DNA of 51,627 nucleotides from Escherichia phage tonijn. The notes beneath the pieces were generated by a model that made no database searches, was not told the origin of the DNA, and saw nothing but the letters and a program-made list of their open reading frames with translations. Where the stretch lies: the sequence record NC_049818.1; one strand, 5' to 3'. The translations under genes and the position numbers were made by a program. Positions 22,538 to 33,061 of the stretch are shown here, one piece after another (position 1 is the stretch's first letter; each line of letters begins with the position of its first letter).

Positions 22538-24535
22538 ATGATTCCAAATATCGAAAAACAAATATCAGCGTTAGGCGAGGCAGTAATAAAAAGCATCCAA
22601 GAGCGATTCACGGTTGGCAATATAGTGCCTTATCCTTATCAGTGCGTTGCGTATGCCGAGATCGCAAAGCGCATGAAAAACTATGAGCATCCTTTCTTTG
22701 TTAAGGCTTCTGTGTCGGCTGGTAAAACATTGATGTTTGCGATGGTTGCGGCGCAATGCCGCAAGATGGGATTGAAAATGATGGTCCTTGCTCGCCAGGC
22801 TGAAATTGTTGATCAGGATTCAGAAGAGATCAGCAATCTTGGCGTGCCAAACTCAATCTATTGCGCCGGACTGAAAACAAAAAGCGCATACTTTCCGATC
22901 GTAGTCGGTTCTGAGGGCACTGTAGTAAACGGATTGTTTAAGTCGTTAGGTGATTATGTTCCGCACGTTATCGGTATTGATGAATGTCACCAGGTGGATT
23001 GGGAGGATCTCGCCGACGCGATAGAAAATAATGAATCTTACCAGCAGATGACCACTAAGAAGGATTTGCCTGTACTGATTGGAGAAGAACAGCAATTTGA
23101 TTCCAATGGCGATCCAATGTTCGGAACAGGACGCACACAGTACACGGTAATAATCATGGAAATGATGCGCAGGTGTCGCGAGGCATACGGGCACGAATTG
23201 CGAATATTCGGTATGACTGGATCTGAGTTTCGCGGCGTGGTTCCAATACTGGTTGAAGATAAGAACAAAAAGGGATTCTGGCGTGAGCAGGTGACTAACA
23301 TAGACACAAACTACTTAATCAAATTCGGTTCTGTAGTGCCAACAAATTTCGGCGACGTAGGCGACCTGGGGTATGACCTTTCAGAGTTCGAAGCCAGTAG
23401 CGAGGATGGCGTTTCAGACTTTGACGCTAAAACATTGCGCAAGATGGAAGAAAAGATCCATCAAGACGCAACAATGACACAGAAAATCATGGCTAAAGTC
23501 CATGAGATATGCAAAGACAGGAACGGAGTTTTAGTTACATGCGCAGGGGAAAGGCACTGCAAGGAGGCAGCCGCCGCACTGCCGCCAGGCGTTGAATACA
23601 GGATCATAACTGGCAAGACTGGAGATAATCAGCGTAAAGAGTGGCTGAGGGAGGCATACGAGGGAAAAGTAAAATACATCTTCCAGGTACAGGCGCTTAC
23701 CACTGGCGTTAACGTTCCGTTTTGGGATACTTCTGTAATACTGAGAAAGATAGGATCTCTAACATTGCTAATCCAGCTTTTGGGGCGCGGTATGCGACTG
23801 CTTAAGCAATGGCACATTGAGCAGGGATTCAAGAAAAAAGATCATCTTGTATTGGATTTTGCCGGTACTATGGATGAGTTAGGGGATTTGTATTTCGATC
23901 CAATCCTTGAGCAAGCGCAATTCCAAAAGAGATTTACAAACGGGAAAGAGCCTAAGACTTGTCCGATATGTGGAACGCTAAACAGCTTTTACGCTCGCCG
24001 ATGTATGCACGTAGACGATAACGGGAAGAGATGCGAGCATTTTTGGACTTACAGAATTTGCGAGGACCAGGTAGATCCGAGAACGAAAAAGATAATCAAG
24101 CGCGGTTGCGGAACAAAAAACGACGTGGTGGCGAGGGTGTGCCGTTGTTGCGATATTTCTCTTGTCGATCCTAACGAGAAGTTAAGCGGTAAGCACTACA
24201 CAAAAAACGATTGGTGCAACGTTAAATCTTTCCGCGTTGATATGACTAAAAATCAGAAAGGAATTGTTTTTTGCTATGAGCTTGAGGCCAACGGCGACAC
24301 GTTCAAGGCATACGAAAGATTTTTCCCTGAGTCAGAAAGCAACATTTGCCGGACGATATGGAGAAAAATAGCATTGCAGCACATACCGGATCGCAAGATT
24401 GCTGGTATGGTGGCGAGCTATAGAAATGCGCGTAAAATAATGTCATACGCTCATCACATCATGCCGCCTGTACGCGTAACGCACCGCAAAAACGGCAAAG
24501 GTGAGGATAACATTGCAAAACGGGAGTTTGTTTAA
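22538..24535 (+). CDS. SF2 ATP-dependent helicase (DEAH-type)
   Basis: Walker A VSAGKTL, motif II IGIDECHQ; 665 aa with C-terminal Cys-rich region. Confidence 0.7.
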   Translation: MIPNIEKQISALGEAVIKSIQERFTVGNIVPYPYQCVAYAEIAKRMKNYEHPFFVKASVSAGKTLMFAMVAAQCRKMGLKMMVLARQAEIVDQDSEEISNLGVPNSIYCAGLKTKSAYFPIVVGSEGTVVNGLFKSLGDYVPHVIGIDECHQVDWEDLADAIENNESYQQMTTKKDLPVLIGEEQQFDSNGDPMFGTGRTQYTVIIMEMMRRCREAYGHELRIFGMTGSEFRGVVPILVEDKNKKGFWREQVTNIDTNYLIKFGSVVPTNFGDVGDLGYDLSEFEASSEDGVSDFDAKTLRKMEEKIHQDATMTQKIMAKVHEICKDRNGVLVTCAGERHCKEAAAALPPGVEYRIITGKTGDNQRKEWLREAYEGKVKYIFQVQALTTGVNVPFWDTSVILRKIGSLTLLIQLLGRGMRLLKQWHIEQGFKKKDHLVLDFAGTMDELGDLYFDPILEQAQFQKRFTNGKEPKTCPICGTLNSFYARRCMHVDDNGKRCEHFWTYRICEDQVDPRTKKIIKRGCGTKNDVVARVCRCCDISLVDPNEKLSGKHYTKNDWCNVKSFRVDMTKNQKGIVFCYELEANGDTFKAYERFFPESESNICRTIWRKIALQHIPDRKIAGMVASYRNARKIMSYAHHIMPPVRVTHRKNGKGEDNIAKREFV

Positions 24536-24954
24536 TGGCTATAACTGATAAAGGCGATTATCTTGAGTTTTACGAAAGAGATCCAACCGACACTAGAAAG
24601 GAAGTTAATCACCAGATAGATAGTTTTCAGTGGTTGACTTATGCTCATCCTTATTTGCTGGCGTGGCATACGGTAAACGAGAATGAGAAGTCTAAAGCAA
24701 CGGCGATGATTGATCAGCAGTCCGGCTTGGTTAAGGGAGTAAGCGATTTCATCATCCTGATTGGCTTAAACGGAAAATACCCCTTTGCGGCGATTGAGAT
24801 CAAACGAGTGAATAAATCAGGCAAGGGGAAAGCATCACCAGTCAGCGATGAACAAAAGGCTTTTTTGCGTCGCGTTCGCAGCTTAGGAGGATTCGCTGCG
24901 GTAGCCTACGGATTCAATCAGTTTAAGTTGGCTATTGAATACATGCTTAAATAG
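24535..24954 (+). CDS. VRR-NUC-type nuclease (putative)
   Basis: 139 aa; GVSDFIILI ... AIEIKR pattern consistent with a PD-(D/E)XK VRR-NUC core. Confidence 0.45.
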   Translation: MAITDKGDYLEFYERDPTDTRKEVNHQIDSFQWLTYAHPYLLAWHTVNENEKSKATAMIDQQSGLVKGVSDFIILIGLNGKYPFAAIEIKRVNKSGKGKASPVSDEQKAFLRRVRSLGGFAAVAYGFNQFKLAIEYMLK

Positions 24955-24995: not shown

Positions 24996-25034
24996 CAATA
25001 ACACGAGATGGCTTTTAATAGCGGAGAAATGAAA

Positions 25035-25760
25035 ATGGCTAAAGATATTTTAGATAAAGACACCCATGACGCATTCGTTAGCTTTGAGCAGTTGGAGAGA
25101 GAAACGTTTATAGGGAATGCCCTTGCAACTGGAGGCCATTACCAGGCAGTAAAGCCAAATCAATATTATAAGGTAAGTGGCAACCGATACGCTGGAAGCA
25201 CCACGCCGGACGTTGTGCGCGATATGTGGAGCACGCCTCAAGAGATTGTGGAGTGGATGGAATCAGAATTTGGTGAATACGATCTCGACGCGGCAGCAAG
25301 CCAGGAAAACGCAGTTTGCGAGAAGTTCTATAGCAAGGAAACAAACTGCTTAAAGCGTTGGTGGGGTAGCAACAAGCACGTATGGCTTAACCCGCCGTAC
25401 AGCAACCCAACTCCATTTATCAAGAAAGCAATTGAGCAAATGGAGCACAACAACCAAATTGATGTTTTGTTGCCAGCCGACAACTCTACAGCATGGTTTT
25501 ATGAGGCGCAGAAAAACGCGGCTGAAATCATCTGGATCACTGGCGAGGTTTACGAAGAGGGTGGAGTAGAATACTCCCGCACCGGAAGAATCGCCTTTGT
25601 GTCTGGATTGACTGGCGAGCCTGTACAGGGCAACAACAAGGGGAGCGTGATTTTTGTCATGCGAAAACTTAAAGAAGGCGAGGAGCAGAAAACGCGATAC
25701 GTTAAGATCAGCGATATTTGCCCTTCTGTAACCGAACGCCGCGCGCGCAAACGGAGCTAA
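25035..25760 (+). CDS. DNA N6-adenine methyltransferase (phage Dam-type)
   Basis: NPPY catalytic motif (HVWLNPPYSN); start chosen at the third ATG, 8 nt after GGAG; alternative starts 25008 or 25029. Confidence 0.6.
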   Translation: MAKDILDKDTHDAFVSFEQLERETFIGNALATGGHYQAVKPNQYYKVSGNRYAGSTTPDVVRDMWSTPQEIVEWMESEFGEYDLDAAASQENAVCEKFYSKETNCLKRWWGSNKHVWLNPPYSNPTPFIKKAIEQMEHNNQIDVLLPADNSTAWFYEAQKNAAEIIWITGEVYEEGGVEYSRTGRIAFVSGLTGEPVQGNNKGSVIFVMRKLKEGEEQKTRYVKISDICPSVTERRARKRS

Positions 25761-25764
25761 CACG

Positions 25765-26022
25765 ATGAAAAAAGAGAGAAGCGTTTATTTAAATGAAACT
25801 GGCGAATGGTTGTTATTTCGCGCTATGGTGTGCGATGCACTTGATAAAAATCCTAACGTGAAAAAGATGATTGATTGCGATCCGTGGGAATTTTCAAGCG
25901 CATTAGATATGAGCTTTGAGGAGACAAGAAAACTCCCGCTTGAAAAATGGCACGAACAAATCAGAAATGACATGCAAGAGTTTGTTGATTCGTGGAATTT
26001 TCAGCACGGAATGATCCACTAA
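25765..26022 (+). CDS. Hypothetical protein
   Basis: 85-aa ORF; stop embedded in the 20-bp element. Confidence 0.45.
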   Translation: MKKERSVYLNETGEWLLFRAMVCDALDKNPNVKKMIDCDPWEFSSALDMSFEETRKLPLEKWHEQIRNDMQEFVDSWNFQHGMIH

Positions 26023-26066
26023 TAGCACTTTTTGTTAAAACGCCCGGCCTAGTGTCGGGCATAATT
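26021..26066 (+). promoter_or_regulatory. Conserved 20-bp element plus hairpin plus ATAATT; left arm of an inverted pair with 29240..29283
   Basis: AATAGCACTTTTTGTTAAAACgcccggcctagtgtcgggcATAATT. Confidence 0.5.
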
Positions 26067-26098
26067 ATTTCAACGAAGCAAACATGAGGAAATAAAAA

Positions 26099-26278
26099 AT
26101 GGTGGTATTCGATAAACGCGCTTTTAATCTTGCTCAAGAAGTAGCAAAAGGTTCAGTGGATGGCGGTTCAAAGGAAGGGTTCCAGTTTGATTGGGAGATC
26201 GCAATGTTTTTACTGAAAGTTGCATACGGTCACGCGCCAATTGAACAAGCGGAGGCATATTATAAGCATGAAGGTTGA
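26099..26278 (+). CDS. Small hypothetical protein (59 aa), below the ORF-track size cutoff
   Basis: ATG 26099 with GAGG 26086-26089 downstream of the element/-10; stop TGA 26276-26278. Confidence 0.4.
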   Translation: MVVFDKRAFNLAQEVAKGSVDGGSKEGFQFDWEIAMFLLKVAYGHAPIEQAEAYYKHEG

Positions 26279-26510
26279 GCAAGGGAGAGAGGCGGTATGG
26301 AATCACGCTAAAGAATGCGGTATTGCCGACGATATAAAGAAGATCGCGCAATACTTTGATATTGCAGATGTGAGCATAATTAGCGGTGATAAGATGACTT
26401 TCCTCAAGGAAAGGCCGCGAAAAATGGTAAGAGTTCCAGCAGTTCCAACAAAAATTGATTTCAAAGAGGCAATGGCTAAAATCCGAGAGCCTCGCAAATA
26501 TTATAAATGA
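26267..26510 (+). CDS. Hypothetical protein
   Basis: ATG 26267 eleven nt after GGAGG; in frame with track ORF 26220..26510. Confidence 0.45.
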
Positions 26511-26604
26511 GGATAGTTATCATGTGGCGCTTGTTTGTTCTACCGTTACCCGTTATCATCGCTGTTACAGTTATGTACCATATAGTAATGAGATAGGTAG
26601 CAGA

Positions 26605-27720
26605 ATGAAAAATGTAAAAATTACAGATGAGCAATTCAAGATCGAACGGGCGGCAGGTAAGACATATAAACAGATCGCTCAAGAGTACGGAATGAATGTG
26701 AGAAGCGTCGAGCGTCGCGCGGCGCGTCTTGCAAAGCAAGGACAGTTATCGACCATTGGAGCGCCTGGTTTTGGTGTTCATGGTGAGTCAGTAATGACCG
26801 ACAAAGAAGGCAACATAATCCTCAAGTGGACCAAAACCAGCAAGGACAAAGAGCAATTAGAAGCATTGATGCGCGCAGCAATGGAGGCGTTTAGCGAGGA
26901 AGTGCCGCGATTAGATCCAGTTCCATTGCAGGAGCGTGACTATAATGAAACGCTTTCATTGTATCCGATCTTTGACATGCACTTAGGCGCTATGGCCCAT
27001 AAGCACGAATGCGGCGAAAATTGGGATACTGCGACGGCGGAGCGCGTTATGAATAACTTTATCGACTATGCTTTGATGTGCGCACCTGACAGTGAAAAGG
27101 CTGTTATCCTGATTGGTGGCGACATGCTTCATAGCGATGGCCTGGAGGCTGTGACCCCTGCAAGCGGTCACGTACTTGATCAAGATAGCCGATATGCAAA
27201 ATTGGTTTACGTTGCAATACGTGCAATGCGCCGCGCAATTAATAAAATGCTGTTAAAGCATAAACATGTTGAGGTCCAGATCGTTGAGGGCAATCACGAC
27301 CAATCAGGAATGATTTGGCTACGCGCAGCAATGGCGGCAGCATATGAGAACGAGCCGCGCGTTTACGTTGATGTTTCTCCTCGCGTTGTTCACCACACGC
27401 AATACGGAAAAACTTTCCTTGCGTACCATCACGGGCACACAGTGCGTAAACCGGAGACTTTGCTAATGATGTGCGCGTCAGATTGGCGGGAGGACTTCGG
27501 AAACTCAAAAACGATGTATGCGCACGTAGGGCACTGGCATCACCAGACCGTGACGGAAACGTCGCTTGGGATCGTGGAGGTACATAGCACCCTGGCGGCA
27601 AAAGACGCATACGCCGCGCGCGGTGGCTGGAGATCTCGACGCCGTGCGGCGGTTATCATTTACGACAAAGAGCATGGAGAAGTCGGGCGATTTGTTCACT
27701 ATCCAGAAATGATGAATTGA
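26605..27720 (+). CDS. Calcineurin-like metallophosphoesterase with N-terminal HTH domain
   Basis: Metallophosphatase motifs in order: DMH, GGDMLHSD, EGNHDQ, YHHGH, GHWHH; N-terminal YKQIAQEYGMNVRSVERRAARL looks like a helix-turn-helix. Confidence 0.6.
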   Translation: MKNVKITDEQFKIERAAGKTYKQIAQEYGMNVRSVERRAARLAKQGQLSTIGAPGFGVHGESVMTDKEGNIILKWTKTSKDKEQLEALMRAAMEAFSEEVPRLDPVPLQERDYNETLSLYPIFDMHLGAMAHKHECGENWDTATAERVMNNFIDYALMCAPDSEKAVILIGGDMLHSDGLEAVTPASGHVLDQDSRYAKLVYVAIRAMRRAINKMLLKHKHVEVQIVEGNHDQSGMIWLRAAMAAAYENEPRVYVDVSPRVVHHTQYGKTFLAYHHGHTVRKPETLLMMCASDWREDFGNSKTMYAHVGHWHHQTVTETSLGIVEVHSTLAAKDAYAARGGWRSRRRAAVIIYDKEHGEVGRFVHYPEMMN

Positions 27721-27764
27721 TGAATTTTTATTTAAATCAATGACAAATTAAATCAAAAACTTGC

Positions 27765-27795
27765 AAAGGGGCGGCGTTTGTCGCCTCTTTTTTTT
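27765..27795 (+). terminator. Rho-independent terminator
   Basis: Imperfect hairpin aggggcggcg/gtcgcctct followed by T8. Confidence 0.5.
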
Positions 27796-27865
27796 GTTTA
27801 ATTTTTTACCATGTGCGTTTATCATGCGGTCAATATATTGACTTTAATTAATATGGAGAATAAAA

Positions 27866-28081
27866 ATGAAAGATTTTATTAACGCAGCTACCGCCGGATC
27901 TGGCGGTTCATCTATCGCAAGCGCCGCTACAGGGCAGTTAACCATTGCTATTGCCAGTTTTGTTTTAATGGCTGCATTCGGTGCGTGGGGCGCTTACCTT
28001 CGCTGGCGTGATAGTAAAAAATTCCACGAGGCGATCGAAAAAGGTGATATTCAAAAAGCTATTGAAATCAGGGGCAAGTAA
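27866..28081 (+). CDS. Holin (putative pinholin)
   Basis: 71 aa, hydrophobic segments and charged C-terminus; immediately upstream of the endolysin. Confidence 0.55.
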
Positions 28082-28572
28082 TGAGCATAAAGAACAAGGT
28101 AGCGGCTGCGGCCTTTGGCGTTGCGGTTGCCTTGACTTCTCCACTTCTTGAAGAGATCGAAGGGGTAAGATACAAGCCATACAAAGATATTGCGGGAATA
28201 TGGACGGTTTGCGCAGGAATCACCGGACCAGATGTTATCCTGGGGAAAACGTACACTAAAAAAGAGTGTGATGCTTTGTTGGCTAAGCATATCCAGGTTG
28301 CTAAAAAGGAAGTTGACAAGCAAGTTAAGGTTGACATTCCTGATAGTATGCGTGCAGCAATGTACTCATTCACTTACAATGCAGGTGTGGGAGCTTTCAG
28401 AAATTCAACAATGCTGAAACTCATCAACCAGGGGAAATTAAACGAGGCTTGCGATCAGCTTTATCGTTGGACGTATTACCATAACCCCAAAACAGGAAAG
28501 CGCGAGAAGTCTAAAGGCTTACTTAACAGGCGCAAGGTCGAATACAAATATTGCACAATGGATCTGAAATGA
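28081..28572 (+). CDS. SAR endolysin (lysozyme with N-terminal signal-anchor-release domain)
   Basis: N-terminal weakly hydrophobic Ala/Gly-rich segment, then [22 protein letters not shown] resembling a T4-lysozyme-type catalytic E-D-T region. Confidence 0.7.
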
Positions 28573-28964
28573 TGAAGAAATTTTTATTTACACCAATCGC
28601 AATGGCGGTGATCTTGTCTGGATGTTCAAGCGTTACGCCACTGACCGGATTAATCGGCAGTAAGCCGGAAATAACAGCACAGGCTGGCGCGGAGAACGTG
28701 AAGCAGACAGTTGGCATTACAGCAAAGCAGGACGCCAGCACAAAACAGGAAACCACAATAAAGGAATCTGCGGTTGACAAGGTGGACACGTCCAGCAAGA
28801 AGGATTTCACAACATCAACCATTCAGGCCAATACCATCAAGGCAGACAAAATTCAGGTCGTGCAGGGTAATAACGGCAGATGGTACGATCCAATAATCAT
28901 ATGCGTGGTTGTGTTCATTGTGCTGATTTGTCTTTACTGGAGGGAAAAGAAAAAGGAGGCTTAA
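28569..28964 (+). CDS. Unimolecular spanin (lipoprotein with C-terminal TM helix)
   Basis: ATG 28569 overlaps the endolysin stop; lipobox ILSGCSS at the N-terminus and TM segment [16 protein letters not shown] at the C-terminus. Confidence 0.6.
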
Positions 28965-28982
28965 TGCCTCCTTTATTTTTAT
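28956..28982. terminator. Bidirectional terminator at the lysis cassette / leftward block boundary
   Basis: Hairpin aggaggcttaatgcctcct followed by T-rich tract. Confidence 0.55.
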
Positions 28983-29203
28983 GCGTCGGGCCACATATGA
29001 GTTTCGTTTGTTGGCTTGTTCGATTCGTCGTACTGCCTTACTTCAATGCTGCAAGTGTCGCCGTACAGTTCTGCAATCTTGCGCTCATTTTCAACCGCCG
29101 ATTGCTCACTCCATCCAAAATCCCTGTCGTAAATTGTCGGTATTTCAGCAGAAGATCCGTTGTCATGATTATATACGCGAACTACTAAAAACTTGCTGGA
29201 CAT
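28979..29203 (-). CDS. Hypothetical protein
   Basis: 74-aa ORF downstream of the element copy at 29240-29283. Confidence 0.45.
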   Translation of the reverse strand: MSSKFLVVRVYNHDNGSSAEIPTIYDRDFGWSEQSAVENERKIAELYGDTCSIEVRQYDESNKPTNETHMWPDA

Positions 29204-29239
29204 AATTTTACCTTTTGGTTGTTTCGTTTCGATGAAACA

Positions 29240-29283
29240 AATATACCCGACACTAGGCCGGGCGTTTTAACAAAAAATGCTAT
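29240..29283 (-). promoter_or_regulatory. Conserved 20-bp element plus hairpin; right arm of the inverted pair with 26021..26066
   Basis: The - strand reads AATAGCATTTTTTGTTAAAACgcccggcctagtgtcgggtATATTT. Confidence 0.5.
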
Positions 29284-29474
29284 TCCATACGCTTTACCGT
29301 AACCAGTAATACACCATCATCATTGCATAAAACATGTTCAGTGGTGCTAAAAGCGCGCATATCTGAATAAAGTAGCGTAAGTAAAGCATGAATAAAATCC
29401 TCATGTGATATTGAATTTACGGCGCAGTGCTTCAAGATCTTGTCTATTAGCTTTTGCCTGGAACAATTCATCAT
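29280..29474 (-). CDS. Small hypothetical protein (start uncertain; overlaps the end of 29401..29796)
   Basis: Stop TAG embedded in the 20-bp element as in other boundary cassettes; alternative internal start at 29360. Confidence 0.3.
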   Translation of the reverse strand: MMNCSRQKLIDKILKHCAVNSISHEDFIHALLTLLYSDMRAFSTTEHVLCNDDGVLLVTVKRME

Positions 29475-29796
29475 CGCCCATCTCCCCTATTCTCGCCATA
29501 TCCCTGATCCAGTCGTTGCGCATACCATCCAGGCTATACAATTCGAATCCGAAAGGACGCTTTGACGATCCTTTGGACCAGTATTTACCGCAGACCCCAT
29601 CTATATAGCCAGCCGTCATCATTCTTGCGCAAAATTCCTTAGATGCAAGGCTGGCGAACATTCGCGGCGTAAGTCCGGCGGCACGTGCGAGCCGCTCGCA
29701 TTCTCTATGCTGATAGATAAATTTGGCTATGTGCTGCCTGTTAAACCAGTCGTATGACTCACACCATTTATACAGATCAAGCAAAAACATAATCAT
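29401..29796 (-). CDS. Hypothetical protein
   Basis: 131-aa ORF; ATG overlaps the stop of the upstream gene (ATGA). Confidence 0.5.
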   Translation of the reverse strand: MIMFLLDLYKWCESYDWFNRQHIAKFIYQHRECERLARAAGLTPRMFASLASKEFCARMMTAGYIDGVCGKYWSKGSSKRPFGFELYSLDGMRNDWIRDMARIGEMGDDELFQAKANRQDLEALRRKFNIT

Positions 29797-31373
29797 CCCA
29801 GCAGTATTGGATTTACAAAAATAACACCATTAATCACACAAACATAATTTCTCTCTTCCAGCATTGGCAGCAAGTGCCCTTCTATCCTCTTCATTACGCC
29901 AGCTTGACCAACGAAAGGTTTTACCTTTCTCGCTGATTCGTACAGGGCGCGGATATTCAGAATCCCTTTATTAGCCTTGCCGTGTCTAGTGATCAATTCA
30001 ATCAATTTACCCATTTCAGCATCATCACCAGCATAACCAGAAGCATTGGCGGCGCTAATGTATGTTTTGCTCAATTCCTGAAACATGATCAGCGCCTCTT
30101 GCATTGTTTCCACGTCGATCTCTTTCGACTTCTGCGGGTATCCAGCAGGATTAAACCAGTTGCGGATAACATGCAGGACGGAAGCAAGCCTGATCACCTG
30201 TTTATCCATTTTACCCAGCGCACCGCGTAACATTGTATGAGAATACTTTCCGCCGTCTGCAAGATGCGGTTCCATATCCTGGCGAGCAATGTTGAGCACT
30301 CGCATAGCTGAACGGCTTATTTTCAGCGATACATTTGATTCGCTCATGATGTTATGCACCAATTGATAATATTGGGCCTTCAATTCAGAATCCACCGCCT
30401 CATAGGTAGAATCACCATTTTCATCAATGAATGAGCGACGGCCTAAGAATGATTCCTCACGTACCAACAAAAAGCGCTCACTCACACCGATACCGCGCGA
30501 TCCAGCGTCCATGATTCCGCTTATCGTTTCATCCTGGGCTATAACGCTCATACATCCAAGTGCGCGAAAACTCATGTTATTGTCAGCATTAGCACGGGCA
30601 ATTGATACGTGACCATTATCCCACGCCTTAAGCACTAGCTCGCTGTTAGTCTTCCTTTCGCTATTGGCATAGGTCAAGCCTAACAGACTGTTAATACTTG
30701 TTGCTTCGTCAGATATTACGGCAAAGTTACCTTGCTTGTTGTTGATTTTTGCCAAGCCTTCTGGAGTTGTATCTGAAACAGGGAAAGTTATATCACACAT
30801 CTTTTCCAGCTTCTCCTCCAGATCCTCTTTTTCCTGGTATAGAGATTCCATATCAGCGCCTGATCTTTCGCTTTTCATCTCCTTTGCAAGACCTGCCAAC
30901 TTTGCCTGTATTTTCTTTCTTTCCTTGCGGCGTTGCTCGTTGATCTTCTCAACTTCCGCAATCATCGGAGCAATAGCCATACTATTGATCGCAGATTTAC
31001 CAGTTGACGGCGGCTGGCTTGTAACAACGTAAAGCGCAGTCGGCTGATCGGTTCCGTGATAGTCAACCGTAAAGCGTCCAAGCATAGCGGCAGAAATGCA
31101 GCCGATAAAGTGCATGTAAGCTGATGATTCAGGGAATTGAACGGATCGCGCAATGCTGCGTGATAGCTTGCCGACAACATCAATATCATTACCAAGAGAA
31201 ATAACGGGGTAGCGATCGTGACCGCTATTTACATCCTTCACGTCGCCCCAAAAGCTGGACGACTGGCGATAGCCGTTAGCCTGAATTGATACGCGAACTG
31301 GTGAAAGGTTCTGGCTTTCAGCCATAGCGATTATTTGCTGTGGAGTTAATTTGTTCGTTTCTAATGAAAACAT
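29793..31373 (-). CDS. P-loop NTPase of unknown function (Walker A and B)
   Basis: 526 aa; Walker A QPPSTGKSA and Walker B-like FAVISDEAT; AAGGAG RBS. Confidence 0.55.
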   Translation of the reverse strand: MFSLETNKLTPQQIIAMAESQNLSPVRVSIQANGYRQSSSFWGDVKDVNSGHDRYPVISLGNDIDVVGKLSRSIARSVQFPESSAYMHFIGCISAAMLGRFTVDYHGTDQPTALYVVTSQPPSTGKSAINSMAIAPMIAEVEKINEQRRKERKKIQAKLAGLAKEMKSERSGADMESLYQEKEDLEEKLEKMCDITFPVSDTTPEGLAKINNKQGNFAVISDEATSINSLLGLTYANSERKTNSELVLKAWDNGHVSIARANADNNMSFRALGCMSVIAQDETISGIMDAGSRGIGVSERFLLVREESFLGRRSFIDENGDSTYEAVDSELKAQYYQLVHNIMSESNVSLKISRSAMRVLNIARQDMEPHLADGGKYSHTMLRGALGKMDKQVIRLASVLHVIRNWFNPAGYPQKSKEIDVETMQEALIMFQELSKTYISAANASGYAGDDAEMGKLIELITRHGKANKGILNIRALYESARKVKPFVGQAGVMKRIEGHLLPMLEERNYVCVINGVIFVNPILLG

Positions 31374-31392
31374 TCGTTAGCTTCTCCTTTGT

Positions 31393-31444
31393 GGGCCGTA
31401 AATTTTAACGGCCCAATACTACCCCGTTTTGTCAAAAAGTGCTA
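31393..31444 (-). promoter_or_regulatory. Conserved 20-bp element (variant) plus hairpin upstream of the P-loop NTPase gene
   Basis: The - strand reads ATAGCACTTTTTGACAAAAC then the hairpin gggccgttaaaatttacggccc then RBS. Confidence 0.45.
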
Positions 31445-31663
31445 TTTGATCCGCTCTATTGCAACCAGAAGTCGATCAGGCTGGCGGTCGCTGTAGCATT
31501 CTCCTGTAATCCCATCCTTAAACGTAAAGTAAAGCGCCTTATGATATGAAAAACCAATCAGCCAACCTACCGCCGTTTTTTTGATGGGCCTGACTATATC
31601 GCCAGGCTTGAAAGTCTTTGTGGTAGAATTCGTTACTTTGTAACGGTTTTCACTGTTTATCAC
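31442..31663 (-). CDS. Hypothetical protein
   Basis: 73-aa ORF; stop lies within the element. Confidence 0.45.
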   Translation of the reverse strand: MINSENRYKVTNSTTKTFKPGDIVRPIKKTAVGWLIGFSYHKALYFTFKDGITGECYSDRQPDRLLVAIERIK

Positions 31664-32046
31664 AGATATTTGCCCTCAAACAGATAACAGCCGCCAGCAG
31701 AGAATCCGACCTCTTCACGGTACAGGTTCCAGCGGTCGCCGCACTCATCAAAAACATAACCCGCAACGCTTCCAAGCGGTCGCCCTTTCTCGATCTGGTA
31801 TCGCTTGCCCTGCTTAAAGTGCTTTTTGCACGGCATGTTATGATCTACAAACGTGCAAAGAACGGTTTTTGTGTTAATGGCGCGGTAATCATCTCGGTTT
31901 GCTGGAAGCCAGCGGCTACCCTTAACAAGCGTCTTAACCTGGAACTCTTCCACCTCGATCACATCATCACTTCCTGCAATCTTCTGATAAACCGTTTTAA
32001 AACGGCCTTTCATCAATACGTTGGTTTCATTACAGATAACATTCAT
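31660..32046 (-). CDS. Hypothetical protein
   Basis: 128-aa ORF with AGGAG RBS downstream of the element at 32075-32119. Confidence 0.5.
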   Translation of the reverse strand: MNVICNETNVLMKGRFKTVYQKIAGSDDVIEVEEFQVKTLVKGSRWLPANRDDYRAINTKTVLCTFVDHNMPCKKHFKQGKRYQIEKGRPLGSVAGYVFDECGDRWNLYREEVGFSAGGCYLFEGKYL

Positions 32047-32074
32047 GATCAGATCTCCTTTGTTTGTTCGATGT

Positions 32075-32119
32075 GATTATGCCAGGTTTTTACACCTGGC
32101 TTTTAACAAAAAGTGCTAT
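32075..32119 (-). promoter_or_regulatory. Conserved 20-bp element, hairpin and ATAATC
   Basis: The - strand reads ATAGCACTTTTTGTTAAAAgccaggtgtaaaaacctggcATAATC. Confidence 0.5.
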
Positions 32120-32832
32120 TTTGAGTTTGACTCAAAGACGGCGCGAGCAAATCCGCGCGGAGTGAGGGAGCGGATCATCTTTGTGCGCGATGACTTACCG
32201 CCAGTTTTGGCCCAGCCTGGATTATCTTTGTCTTCCTCTTTCGGCAGGATTAAAGCGCGCGGAGGAATAACAAAGCCGTTTCCAGTCCAGAGGCACGTTT
32301 TCTTAAAATAGCGATCCCGTGCCGGAATAATATCAGGGAAGTCGGGATGTTTATCATCTTCCGGCAGATAGCCAGCGTAATCGCACGGATGGAACGTATA
32401 ATCAGGCTTTCGCCATAACGTTGACAACTTGCCAACCGGATTTTCGATCATGTAAGGAACACCGAAATAATCAGCTATATCAGCCGCGATTCTGCAAGTG
32501 TCGGCGGCCTCATCCTGGAACGATGGATTCTCAAGGCGTTTTTTGGCCCAATGGCGAGATCCGCTATTTGCAAGGTCGGTGCATGGTGGGAAGGCCATAA
32601 TAAAATCAGGATTGCCCCACTCATTATTGATTGCCTTAACATAAAAAGCATCATCAATCCAGACGTTAACGTATTCGATATTCTCATGCTGTATGCGCAC
32701 TGACTGGTAATCACCGTGATCGCCGCCGTCAGCATTAAAGCAAATGCACTTATAGCCATTATCAGCCCAATCTTTAACGGCTTTACCAGATCCATCAAAT
32801 AGGGAGAATATTAAACCTTTATACATCGTCAT
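32116..32832 (-). CDS. DNA cytosine-5 methyltransferase-like protein (compact)
   Basis: ATG 32830-32832 after GAGG; motifs LFDGSG (FxGxG), FPPCTD (PC motif), ENPVG (ENV-like), RSLTPRGFARA (C-terminal motif); 238 aa. Confidence 0.5.
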   Translation of the reverse strand: MTMYKGLIFSLFDGSGKAVKDWADNGYKCICFNADGGDHGDYQSVRIQHENIEYVNVWIDDAFYVKAINNEWGNPDFIMAFPPCTDLANSGSRHWAKKRLENPSFQDEAADTCRIAADIADYFGVPYMIENPVGKLSTLWRKPDYTFHPCDYAGYLPEDDKHPDFPDIIPARDRYFKKTCLWTGNGFVIPPRALILPKEEDKDNPGWAKTGGKSSRTKMIRSLTPRGFARAVFESNSK

Positions 32833-32836
32833 TACC

Positions 32837-33061
32837 TCAAAACGGAAAACAGCGCGGACAACTAGGATCGAAATCGCATCCACAATCATTAACAATCATA
32901 TTGGGATCTGCAAATATTGCGCTTGATTCAAGATCCATATCCATATCACCTAAAGCCTCATCAAGAGTCTTAATTTTATATGCCACTTCAAGCGCCGCCT
33001 CTTTATTTATTCCGGCATCTTCTGCCATTTGAAGGCGCTCAAAAAAACCGTCCTGACTCAT
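32837..33061 (-). CDS. Hypothetical acidic protein with C-terminal Cys cluster
   Basis: 74-aa ORF; start overlaps the stop of a small upstream ORF. Confidence 0.45.
   Translation of the reverse strand: MSQDGFFERLQMAEDAGINKEAALEVAYKIKTLDEALGDMDMDLESSAIFADPNMIVNDCGCDFDPSCPRCFPF

Follow-up and report, generated by a model that had tools for sequence, protein, structure and literature searches.

The closest described counterpart of the cytosine methyltransferase discussed here is Dcm of phage K42 (KarlJaspers strain), which triggers retron Ec86/Eco1 (Wang et al., bioRxiv 10.1101/2023.08.16.553469; Cell Rep 2024 43:114857). The product of K42 Dcm, 5-methylcytosine (5mC), was detected by LC-MS against a standard and depended on the active site; a quadruple mutant, with C82 among four residues changed together, was inactive, and K175 and K176 (236-aa numbering) were picked as substrate-binding residues (bioRxiv 10.1101/2023.08.16.553469). 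The retron senses the cytosine enzyme through methylation of its own msDNA; the study used MG1655, in which the vector control displayed little msDNA 5mC and no auto-activation, and CCWGG specificity was carried over from E. coli Dcm as an assumption (bioRxiv 10.1101/2023.08.16.553469). MG1655 itself carries dcm and does not activate the retron, therefore an argument from dosage or access is needed if both enzymes share sites. This trigger role has been published and is covered in reviews.

The window analysed here is the whole 51,627-nucleotide stretch of Escherichia phage tonijn (NC_049818.1). It is considered very likely that the two genes described below encode two orphan phage DNA methyltransferases, a T1-type Dam and a 236-aa minimal DNMT3-like C5 enzyme, which modify phage DNA after replication. 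Both genes are already known, having been annotated and studied in close relatives; they are named dam and dcm in the public records of TLS, swan01, tiwna, FritzSarasin, and many others.

Dam-Type Adenine Methyltransferase

25035..25760, + strand: Dam-type DNA N6-adenine methyltransferase gene, 241 aa (Pfam/NCBIfam profiles, T1-type gene order)
25389..25400, + strand: NPPY catalytic motif (motif IV) of Dam, aa 119-122 (direct translation)

The 241 aa protein is a member of the phage N-6-adenine methyltransferase family, with matches to Pfam PF05869 (E 1.1e-61, 207.9 bits; curated cut-off 28.1) and to the NCBIfam equivalog TIGR01712 phage_N6A_met (E 1.2e-53, 181 bits; curated cut-off 97.05). 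The NPPY motif that the initial annotation had read in this ORF is borne out by both profiles, and its WLNPPYS context is also present in the Dam proteins of T1 and KarlJaspers; identity to KarlJaspers Dam is 84% by protein comparison. A GGAG at 25023-25026 lies 8 nt 5' of the ATG, and the gene order of helicase, VRR-NUC, and dam is common to the tonijn window, T1, TLS, and KarlJaspers.

The Dam of T1 (ST20) shares 66% identity over 218 aa including NPPY, is similar in length (237 aa), and occupies the same slot behind helicase and VRR-NUC; it is an ortholog from another subfamily (Tunavirinae for T1, Tempevirinae for tonijn) and otherwise displays no substantive difference. T1 Dam is reportedly specific for GATC, according to work by Auer & Schweiger (1984) and Schneider-Scherzer (1990). 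The observed/expected ratio of GATC is enriched in tonijn (1.67x) and neutral in T1 (1.09x); it is ~1.4 in Dam-positive T1-like loci versus 0.27-0.43 in Dam-less ones, a contrast confounded by lineage as is that for CCWGG below. The predicted target of tonijn Dam is most likely GATC.

Compact Cytosine Methyltransferase

32116..32826, - strand: compact DNA cytosine-C5 methyltransferase gene ("Dcm-like"), 236 aa, 711 bp with stop
32835..32838, - strand: Shine-Dalgarno GAGG, 8 nt before ATG 32826
32785..32802, - strand: motif I (AdoMet binding) LFDGSG, aa 11-16, aligning with SLFDG of DNMT3B
32575..32592, - strand: motif IV FPPCTD with catalytic Cys84 (C82 in 236-aa numbering), aligning with PCNDL of DNMT3B
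32431..32445, - strand: motif VI ENPVG with Glu130 (E128 in 236-aa numbering), from family conservation
32287..32319, - strand: RDRYFKKTCLW segment, aa 172-182, probable motif VIII equivalent
32185..32274, - strand: ~30 residues replacing the target-recognition domain, aa 187-216, from DSSP of the predicted model
32140..32172, - strand: motif X equivalent RSLTPRGFARA, aa 221-231, register uncertain by one residue

The ORF was initially drawn as 32116..32832 (238 aa); its motifs hold, while its start is better placed at the ATG at 32826 (MYKGL...). The start at 32832 would add Met-Thr and lies merely 2 nt from the GAGG, which overlaps the TGA stop of an upstream 74-aa ORF (32837..33061). KarlJaspers has the same arrangement of GAGG and stop, but its upstream ATG lies in another frame, and the annotated gene there measures 711 bp; this, together with the GAGG spacing, makes ATG 32826 the likely start. 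Two longer starts were rejected: a TTG at 32895 (259 aa) overlaps the upstream gene and precedes a family alignment that is nearly empty before residue 4, and the 774-nt start annotated in FritzSarasin likewise overlaps the upstream gene, with almost no alignment occupancy before residue 4.

All four motifs of the initial annotation are present in the 238-aa numbering: LFDGSG (11-16), FPPCTD (81-86), ENPVG (130-134), and RSLTPRGFARA (221-231). Residue conservation was scored over 72 diverse family members; C84, E130, and P132 are invariant, P82 and N131 are shared by 90% or more, and the family consensus at motif I is SLFDxTG, which is DNMT3-like. The occurrence of PCT in place of PCQ, flagged at the outset, is real yet not alarming, as DNMT3B has PCN in the equivalent motif of the alignment. 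The RDRYFKKTCLW segment falls inside a family-specific conserved block (aa 149-184); Y175 and W182 are invariant, and D173, K177, and T179 occur in at least 90% of the 72 members. At the C-terminus RSxTPRGFAxAVF is conserved, and 90% or more of the members share R221, S222, P225, G227, and A231.

The predicted model has the fold of a C5-methyltransferase catalytic domain with the catalytic residues in place; taken with the conserved Cys and Glu and the published ortholog, this supports the original reading of a minimal cytosine methyltransferase. Canonical C5-methyltransferases have a target-recognition domain of at least 80 residues where the compact protein has ~30; DSSP of the model assigns a strand at 179-184, then one short helix (205-209), then a helix at 215-222. 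Aa 185-214 are weakly conserved (mean frequency of the commonest residue 0.44), with lower values only in aa 28-76 and 101-124. The compact protein shows no separate motif IX and, by model DSSP and family alignment, lacks the variable target-recognition domain that would precede it after motif VIII, and it is proposed from the model that the compact size was reached by cutting the target-recognition domain to ~30 residues. The estimate of about half the usual length was a fair one: M.HhaI has 327 aa and E. coli Dcm 472, compared with 236 aa here.

Comparison with Other C5 Methyltransferases

The KarlJaspers (Bas06) protein is 90% identical without gaps, from a 711-bp gene with shared neighbours; its 24 substitutions fall mostly in aa 33-75, and C82, E128, K175, and K176 of K42 Dcm are identical in the tonijn protein. 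From this comparison the compact enzyme appears to be the ortholog of the published K42/KarlJaspers Dcm. The ORF also matches phrog_757 "DNA methyltransferase" (1e-85). Searches returned 2,059 homologs of 227-260 aa; the family comprises 1,194 clusters at 50% identity and occurs in ~3% of phage records.

Profile libraries do not capture this family; the compact protein had no Pfam match at E<=0.1, PF00145 included, and none in NCBIfam, with sub-threshold PF00145 matches in 10 of the 72 members (best E 0.0039). With the single protein or the 72-sequence profile as query, PDB sequences yielded no significant hit; DNMT3B (E 0.6) and DNMT2 (E 0.98) came closest, with alignments confined to motifs I-IV. 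Identity to the DNMT3A/DNMT3B catalytic domain is only 15-18%; the compact enzyme is ~50 residues shorter, lacks the regulatory domains, shows no sign of a DNMT3L-type partner, and probably does not target CpG.

Compared with canonical bacterial C5-methyltransferases (PF00145; E. coli Dcm, M.HhaI), the compact enzyme is half the size, falls below the Pfam threshold, and has ~30 residues where they carry a target-recognition domain. E. coli Dcm (472 aa, CCWGG) has no significant sequence similarity to the compact enzyme: hhalign of the family profile against the single Dcm sequence was not significant (probability 0.56%), although it pairs the PC motifs and puts ENPVG on the ENV of Dcm, and tblastn with Dcm found nothing at the compact locus. 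For lack of significant profile similarity and because tblastn with Dcm misses the gene, "Dcm-like" is best regarded as a functional label only. By tblastn the window also has no Vsr homolog that could serve as a vsr partner. SpCmoX of Synechococcus phage S-B43 (PDB 8yf3) is a 372 aa protein with a full target-recognition domain that accepts Cx-SAM only; its GRMVPPLMM is resembled by RSLTPRGFARA. HMMER alignments of the compact family to CmoX and Dcm cover the N-terminal half only.

Recognition Site and Alternative Activities

By analogy with the literature, from which 5mC formation is taken, the compact enzyme is very likely an active 5mC-forming enzyme; CCWGG as its site is predicted as somewhat more likely than not. 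Among T1-like loci only carriers show a 2-3x enrichment of CCWGG, and Tempevirinae have lost nearly all of the sister motif CCSGG, a loss limited to the Tempevirinae-like subset; lineage confounds these contrasts, since the five non-carriers are all Rtp-like and devoid of both genes. Retention of CCWGG with loss of CCSGG would be expected if the W half alone of CCNGG is protected. A different site, shorter or degenerate as an enzyme nearly devoid of a target-recognition domain may read, is considered unlikely for this C5 enzyme; the msDNA effect would then reflect a cytosine that chances to fall within CCTGG, with DNMT3 reading CpG as a parallel. Such a site would fit the closest structures, which are the CpG-reading DNMT3 enzymes, the want of sequence similarity to E. 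coli Dcm, and the MG1655 host Dcm, which neither activated the retron nor gave high msDNA 5mC; the msDNA mutants AATGG, ACTGG, and CATGG delete cytosines and could also upset effector contacts (bioRxiv 10.1101/2023.08.16.553469). CCWGG is moreover depleted (median 0.58) in contigs with distant family members at 41-48% identity, and CCWGG sparing was rejected as a universal family signature on that account. Against this stand the carrier-specific enrichment, the near loss of CCSGG, and digests of AAS23, which were interpreted as Dcm-type methylation; a literature search found no methylome data for Drexlerviridae. E. coli B/BL21 is not known to carry dcm, and in such a host methylated CCWGG would clearly mark DNA as non-self. 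These strains are the natural home of retron Ec86 (bioRxiv 10.1101/2023.08.16.553469), which also argues for CCWGG.

It is very improbable that the compact enzyme is CmoX-like, using carboxy-SAM from the host CmoA to form 5-carboxymethylcytosine instead of or beside 5mC. Natural DNA carboxymethyltransferases are defined by two marks, Pro-Pro-Cys and a motif X Arg, and the compact family has Pro-Pro-Cys and a conserved Arg that may correspond to the second mark; however the Arg is not diagnostic, because DNMT3A and DNMT3B, true AdoMet methyltransferases, carry it too. The register is ambiguous by one residue, as judged by sequence alone, with either R221 or S222 able to match HhaI N304/CmoX R350, and the compact protein has FPPC where CmoX has SPPC. 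Natural CmoX genes typically adjoin cmoA, and in S-B43 cmoA, cmoY, and cmoX are adjacent, whereas tblastn found neither a CmoA homolog nor a CmoY-like ligase in the tonijn window; LC-MS furthermore showed 5mC for the K42 ortholog, requiring active-site residues (bioRxiv 10.1101/2023.08.16.553469). Were carboxymethylation true, 5cxmC would be a common T1-like coliphage modification formed without a phage cmoA, and the compact family would be no Dcm mimic but a user of the Cx-SAM of enterobacterial tRNA modification. Still less credible is an inactive or non-DNA paralog, such as a regulator, a decoy, or a DNMT2-like RNA methyltransferase, as the catalytic Cys, Glu, and AdoMet motifs show little or no variation among the 1,194 clusters, and mutating those residues ends both DNA 5mC and retron triggering (bioRxiv 10.1101/2023.08.16.553469).

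Proposed Role and Implications

Both stand-alone methyltransferases are hypothesized to modify phage DNA after replication. With AdoMet as methyl donor, the T1-type Dam would form N6-methyladenine in its NPPY active site, most likely at GATC. In the compact enzyme, read as a 5mC-forming methyltransferase, Cys84 of the PPC motif would attack C6 of a flipped-out cytosine while Glu130 of the ENP motif protonates N3; the AdoMet methyl group would then pass to C5, yielding 5-methylcytosine, probably at CC(A/T)GG, the E. coli Dcm site. The family-specific block at aa 149-184 probably adds DNA contacts. The benefit would be full GATC and CCWGG methylation of fast-replicating phage DNA independent of host Dam/Dcm status, which would blunt nucleases that cut unmethylated sites: EcoRII and CCNGG-type enzymes at CCWGG, and at GATC both GATC-specific enzymes and, according to older literature, MutH. 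The protective role of the two enzymes is presumed, and in BASEL these methyltransferase genes were not related to restriction resistance in any simple way.

For annotation, the 711-bp start is advised for the compact gene rather than 774-780-bp ORFs that overlap the upstream gene. The compact C5-methyltransferase family is very abundant and invisible to Pfam/NCBIfam; mapping the methylation that it sets and building a new profile for it would thus be inexpensive and rewarding. The cost of the cytosine enzyme would be that it acts as the trigger for retron Ec86/Eco1; by analogy with K42, the presence of the compact gene predicts that tonijn would be sensitive to this retron.

Dam and the Shared Neighborhood

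Dam is a 241 aa protein encoded on the plus strand at 25035..25760, and the NPPY motif first noted in it is found at residues 119-122; the start at 25035 is backed by a GGAG at 25023-25026, 8 nt ahead of the ATG. The protein scores far over the curated cut-offs of Pfam PF05869 (1.1e-61) and the NCBIfam equivalog TIGR01712 'phage N-6-adenine-methyltransferase' (1.2e-53), with 66% identity to the Dam of T1 (ST20) and 84% to that of KarlJaspers; the gene order of helicase, VRR-NUC, then dam is the same in the window, T1, TLS, and KarlJaspers. Dam is a typical ortholog of an enzyme that has long been known, and going by the T1 literature its target is most likely GATC. Three further features were noted in the region:

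24535..24954, plus strand, VRR-NUC nuclease gene directly upstream of dam
29793..31373, minus strand, DUF3987 helicase gene, 0.7 kb downstream of the compact methyltransferase gene
32826..32895, minus strand, competing annotated or ORF starts of the compact methyltransferase gene

The window is probably the full genome of a T1-like coliphage. Across the 8.6 kb around both methyltransferase genes, identity is 99.2% to Escherichia phage vB_Eco-B1.2 and 98.5-98.6% to tiwna and FritzSarasin (Bas04), all three of them members of Warwickvirus (Drexlerviridae, Tempevirinae). The VRR-NUC and DUF3987 helicase genes are kept as neighbors in T1, RTP, TLS, and KarlJaspers, whether the methyltransferase genes are present or not. 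Some 20-39 'Campylobacter phage' records (e.g., C9, C12, A131, A123), several of them unannotated, carry the region in a T1-like or other enterobacterial-phage form, and may be mislabelled or contaminant assemblies.

The Compact C5-Cytosine Methyltransferase

The minus-strand ORF 32116..32832 (238 aa) contains every motif first ascribed to it: LFDGSG (11-16), FPPCTD (81-86), ENPVG (130-134), and RSLTPRGFARA (221-231). The start originally placed at 32832 has given way to the ATG at 32826; a GAGG at 32835-32838, overlapping the stop codon of an upstream 74 aa ORF, lies 8 nt from this ATG and only 2 nt from that at 32832. KarlJaspers has its upstream ATG in a different reading frame, and there the annotated 711 bp gene begins MYKGL. 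Because of this spacing and the KarlJaspers gene, the most likely extent is 32116..32826 (236 aa). Annotated starts conflict: the gene is given 774 nt in FritzSarasin (L001 9118..9891) but 711 nt in KarlJaspers. Versions of the longer kind overlap the 74 aa ORF, and were rejected as Shine-Dalgarno spacing and family alignment favor the 711 bp form.

No Pfam or NCBIfam model matches the compact protein at threshold, PDB sequence searches return no significant match, and no sequence relationship to E. coli Dcm is detectable; the protein does match phrog_757 'DNA methyltransferase' (1e-85). It belongs to a very large family whose members differ little in length: 2,059 homologs of 227-260 aa were found, and clustering at 50% identity gives 1,194 clusters. 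By tblastn, 1,497 of 50,697 phage records have a match, the non-T1-like carriers including 40-50 kb siphoviruses such as Dhillonvirus, ~164 kb RB49-like myoviruses (Krischvirus), and others of 137-172 kb. The protein of the window is 100% identical to one from phage orkinos. In an alignment of 72 diverse members, C84, E130, P132, P149, Y175, W182, and P190 (238 aa numbering) are invariant, and motifs I, IV, VI, and the C-terminal motif nearly so; motif I (SLFDG) and motif IV (PC-T/N-DL-A/S-N) resemble those of DNMT3 rather than of bacterial enzymes. Only ~30 residues separate strand 179-184 from the C-terminal helices, where canonical C5-methyltransferases have a full target-recognition domain (TRD). 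By fold and catalytic residues the protein is a true, though highly divergent and TRD-poor, C5-methyltransferase; the suggestion of a minimal cytosine methyltransferase is borne out, the enzyme being genuine, widespread, and DNMT3-like. Two uncultured-phage proteins of 1,126-1,397 aa (A0A6J5SE15 and A0A6J5NPY6, BFVD) carry a fused domain 26-29% identical to the compact enzyme, the 1,397 aa fusion being annotated as a helicase/UvrB N-terminal protein and the other as uncharacterized. Larger enzymes can therefore also contain the minimal domain as a module.

The compact protein is 90% identical, without gaps, to the 'Dcm-like C5 cytosine methyltransferase' of KarlJaspers (Bas06), strain K42 of which was used in work on retron Ec86 (Wang et al., bioRxiv 10.1101/2023.08.16.553469). 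All four Ec86 escapers were disrupted in the 711 bp gene or its upstream region, the expressed gene was toxic only with the retron present, and the gene is carried by 34 of 35 Ec86-sensitive phages; LC-MS of purified msDNA showed a rise in 5mC upon expression of the gene, and none with a C82A/E128A/K175A/K176A mutant (Wang et al., 10.1101/2023.08.16.553469). The window protein has C82, E128, K175, and K176 (236 aa numbering) at identical positions. We infer that the escaper C-to-A change nine bases upstream of the start, when read on the coding strand, falls on the GAGG.

The family has a conserved Arg-Ser in motif X (residues 221-222, nt 32167-32172 in the window) and a Pro-Pro-Cys motif, both resembling the marks by which natural DNA carboxymethyltransferases (CmoX) are defined. 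However, DNMT3A and DNMT3B have the same Arg yet use AdoMet, and the register of Arg221 against CmoX of phage S-B43 (recovered in this analysis) is ambiguous by one residue from sequence alone; the window has no cmoA, and 5mC was detected for the K42 ortholog (10.1101/2023.08.16.553469), making carboxymethylation very improbable.

Site Statistics and the Recognition Sequence

Six-bp palindromes are strongly avoided in the window (median observed/expected (o/e) 0.23; z < -2 for 36 of 64), with EcoRI at 3/20, EcoRV 0/11, PstI 0/12, and EcoKI 0/6 observed/expected. Of the 4-bp palindromes GATC is the most enriched, with 307 sites where 183 are expected (z about 10), and of the 5-bp palindromes CCWGG, with 121 sites against 53 expected (z about 10). 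Its sister motif CCSGG is all but missing, at 3 sites against 46 expected. Counts were compared with loci L004, L006, L012, L013, and L094-L112, including 19 T1-like loci taken around the conserved DUF3987 helicase.

Methyltransferase genes and site o/e in the window and reference phages
Phage	Dam	Compact enzyme	GATC	CCWGG	CCSGG
Window	yes	yes	1.67	2.23	0.06
KarlJaspers (15 kb)	yes	yes	1.53	2.81	0.00
TLS (20 kb)	yes	yes	1.63	2.63	0.00
T1	yes	no	1.09	1.60	1.44
RTP	no	no	0.42	1.26	1.00

Among T1-like loci, GATC sparing tracks dam (median o/e 1.38 in 11 Dam-positive loci vs 0.27-0.43 in five that cover the dam position without the gene) and CCWGG enrichment tracks the compact enzyme (median 2.74 in 14 carriers vs 1.37 in five non-carriers; Mann-Whitney p = 0.003, phylogeny ignored). 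Protection of GATC and CCWGG by the phage enzymes would be expected to produce such a pattern, and the scarcity of CCSGG agrees with protection limited to the W half of CCNGG. As a test this is weak: the five non-carriers are all Rtp-like and have neither gene, the p-values take no account of phylogeny, and in 30 contigs with distant family members (41-48% identity) CCWGG is depleted (median 0.58), while only a Tempevirinae-like subset shows the loss of CCSGG.

For the phage enzyme, CCWGG was an assumption carried over from E. coli Dcm, and the supporting msDNA mutants take away cytosines (Wang et al., 10.1101/2023.08.16.553469); their effects could arise in ways other than site loss. The retron experiments used MG1655, where the vector control had little msDNA 5mC and host Dcm did not activate the retron (10.1101/2023.08.16.553469). 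MG1655 has its own dcm (L005 1900..3318); identical sites for host and phage enzymes would need an explanation by dosage or access, given such low msDNA 5mC. BL21, the natural host of Ec86, is not known to carry dcm; if it lacks the gene, CCWGG methylation there would be a clean non-self signal. CCWGG is, on balance, the probable target.

Biological Role

An anti-restriction role for the two methyltransferases is a reasonable proposal with which the site statistics agree. The BASEL work found the near-identical FritzSarasin to be highly restriction-resistant, yet saw methyltransferase genes and resistance linked in no simple manner; the extreme palindrome avoidance in the window is an obvious alternative cause, and may account for this resistance. 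GATC avoidance in enterophages was reportedly put down to MutH by Deschavanne and Radman in 1991; a phage Dam would lift this pressure, which strictly speaking lies outside restriction-modification.

The finding of two methyltransferases is correct and already known, both genes being annotated and partly characterized: the work of Wang et al. is out in Cell Reports 2024 and now cited in reviews, the earlier Pantoea phage AAS23 paper used HHpred to tie an ortholog to C5-methyltransferases and interpreted restriction digests as showing both Dam and Dcm methylation, the TLS record names the same genes dam and dcm, and the BASEL paper treats both kinds as abundant among Drexlerviridae. What value is left lies in the recognition sequence, in how a TRD-poor enzyme reads DNA, and in a Pfam/NCBIfam model, which this very large family lacks. 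Retrons sense phage methyltransferases as signals of infection, Dcm triggering Ec86 and adenine methyltransferases triggering Sen2, Asa1, and Squ1; such enzymes are therefore costly for the phages that carry them.
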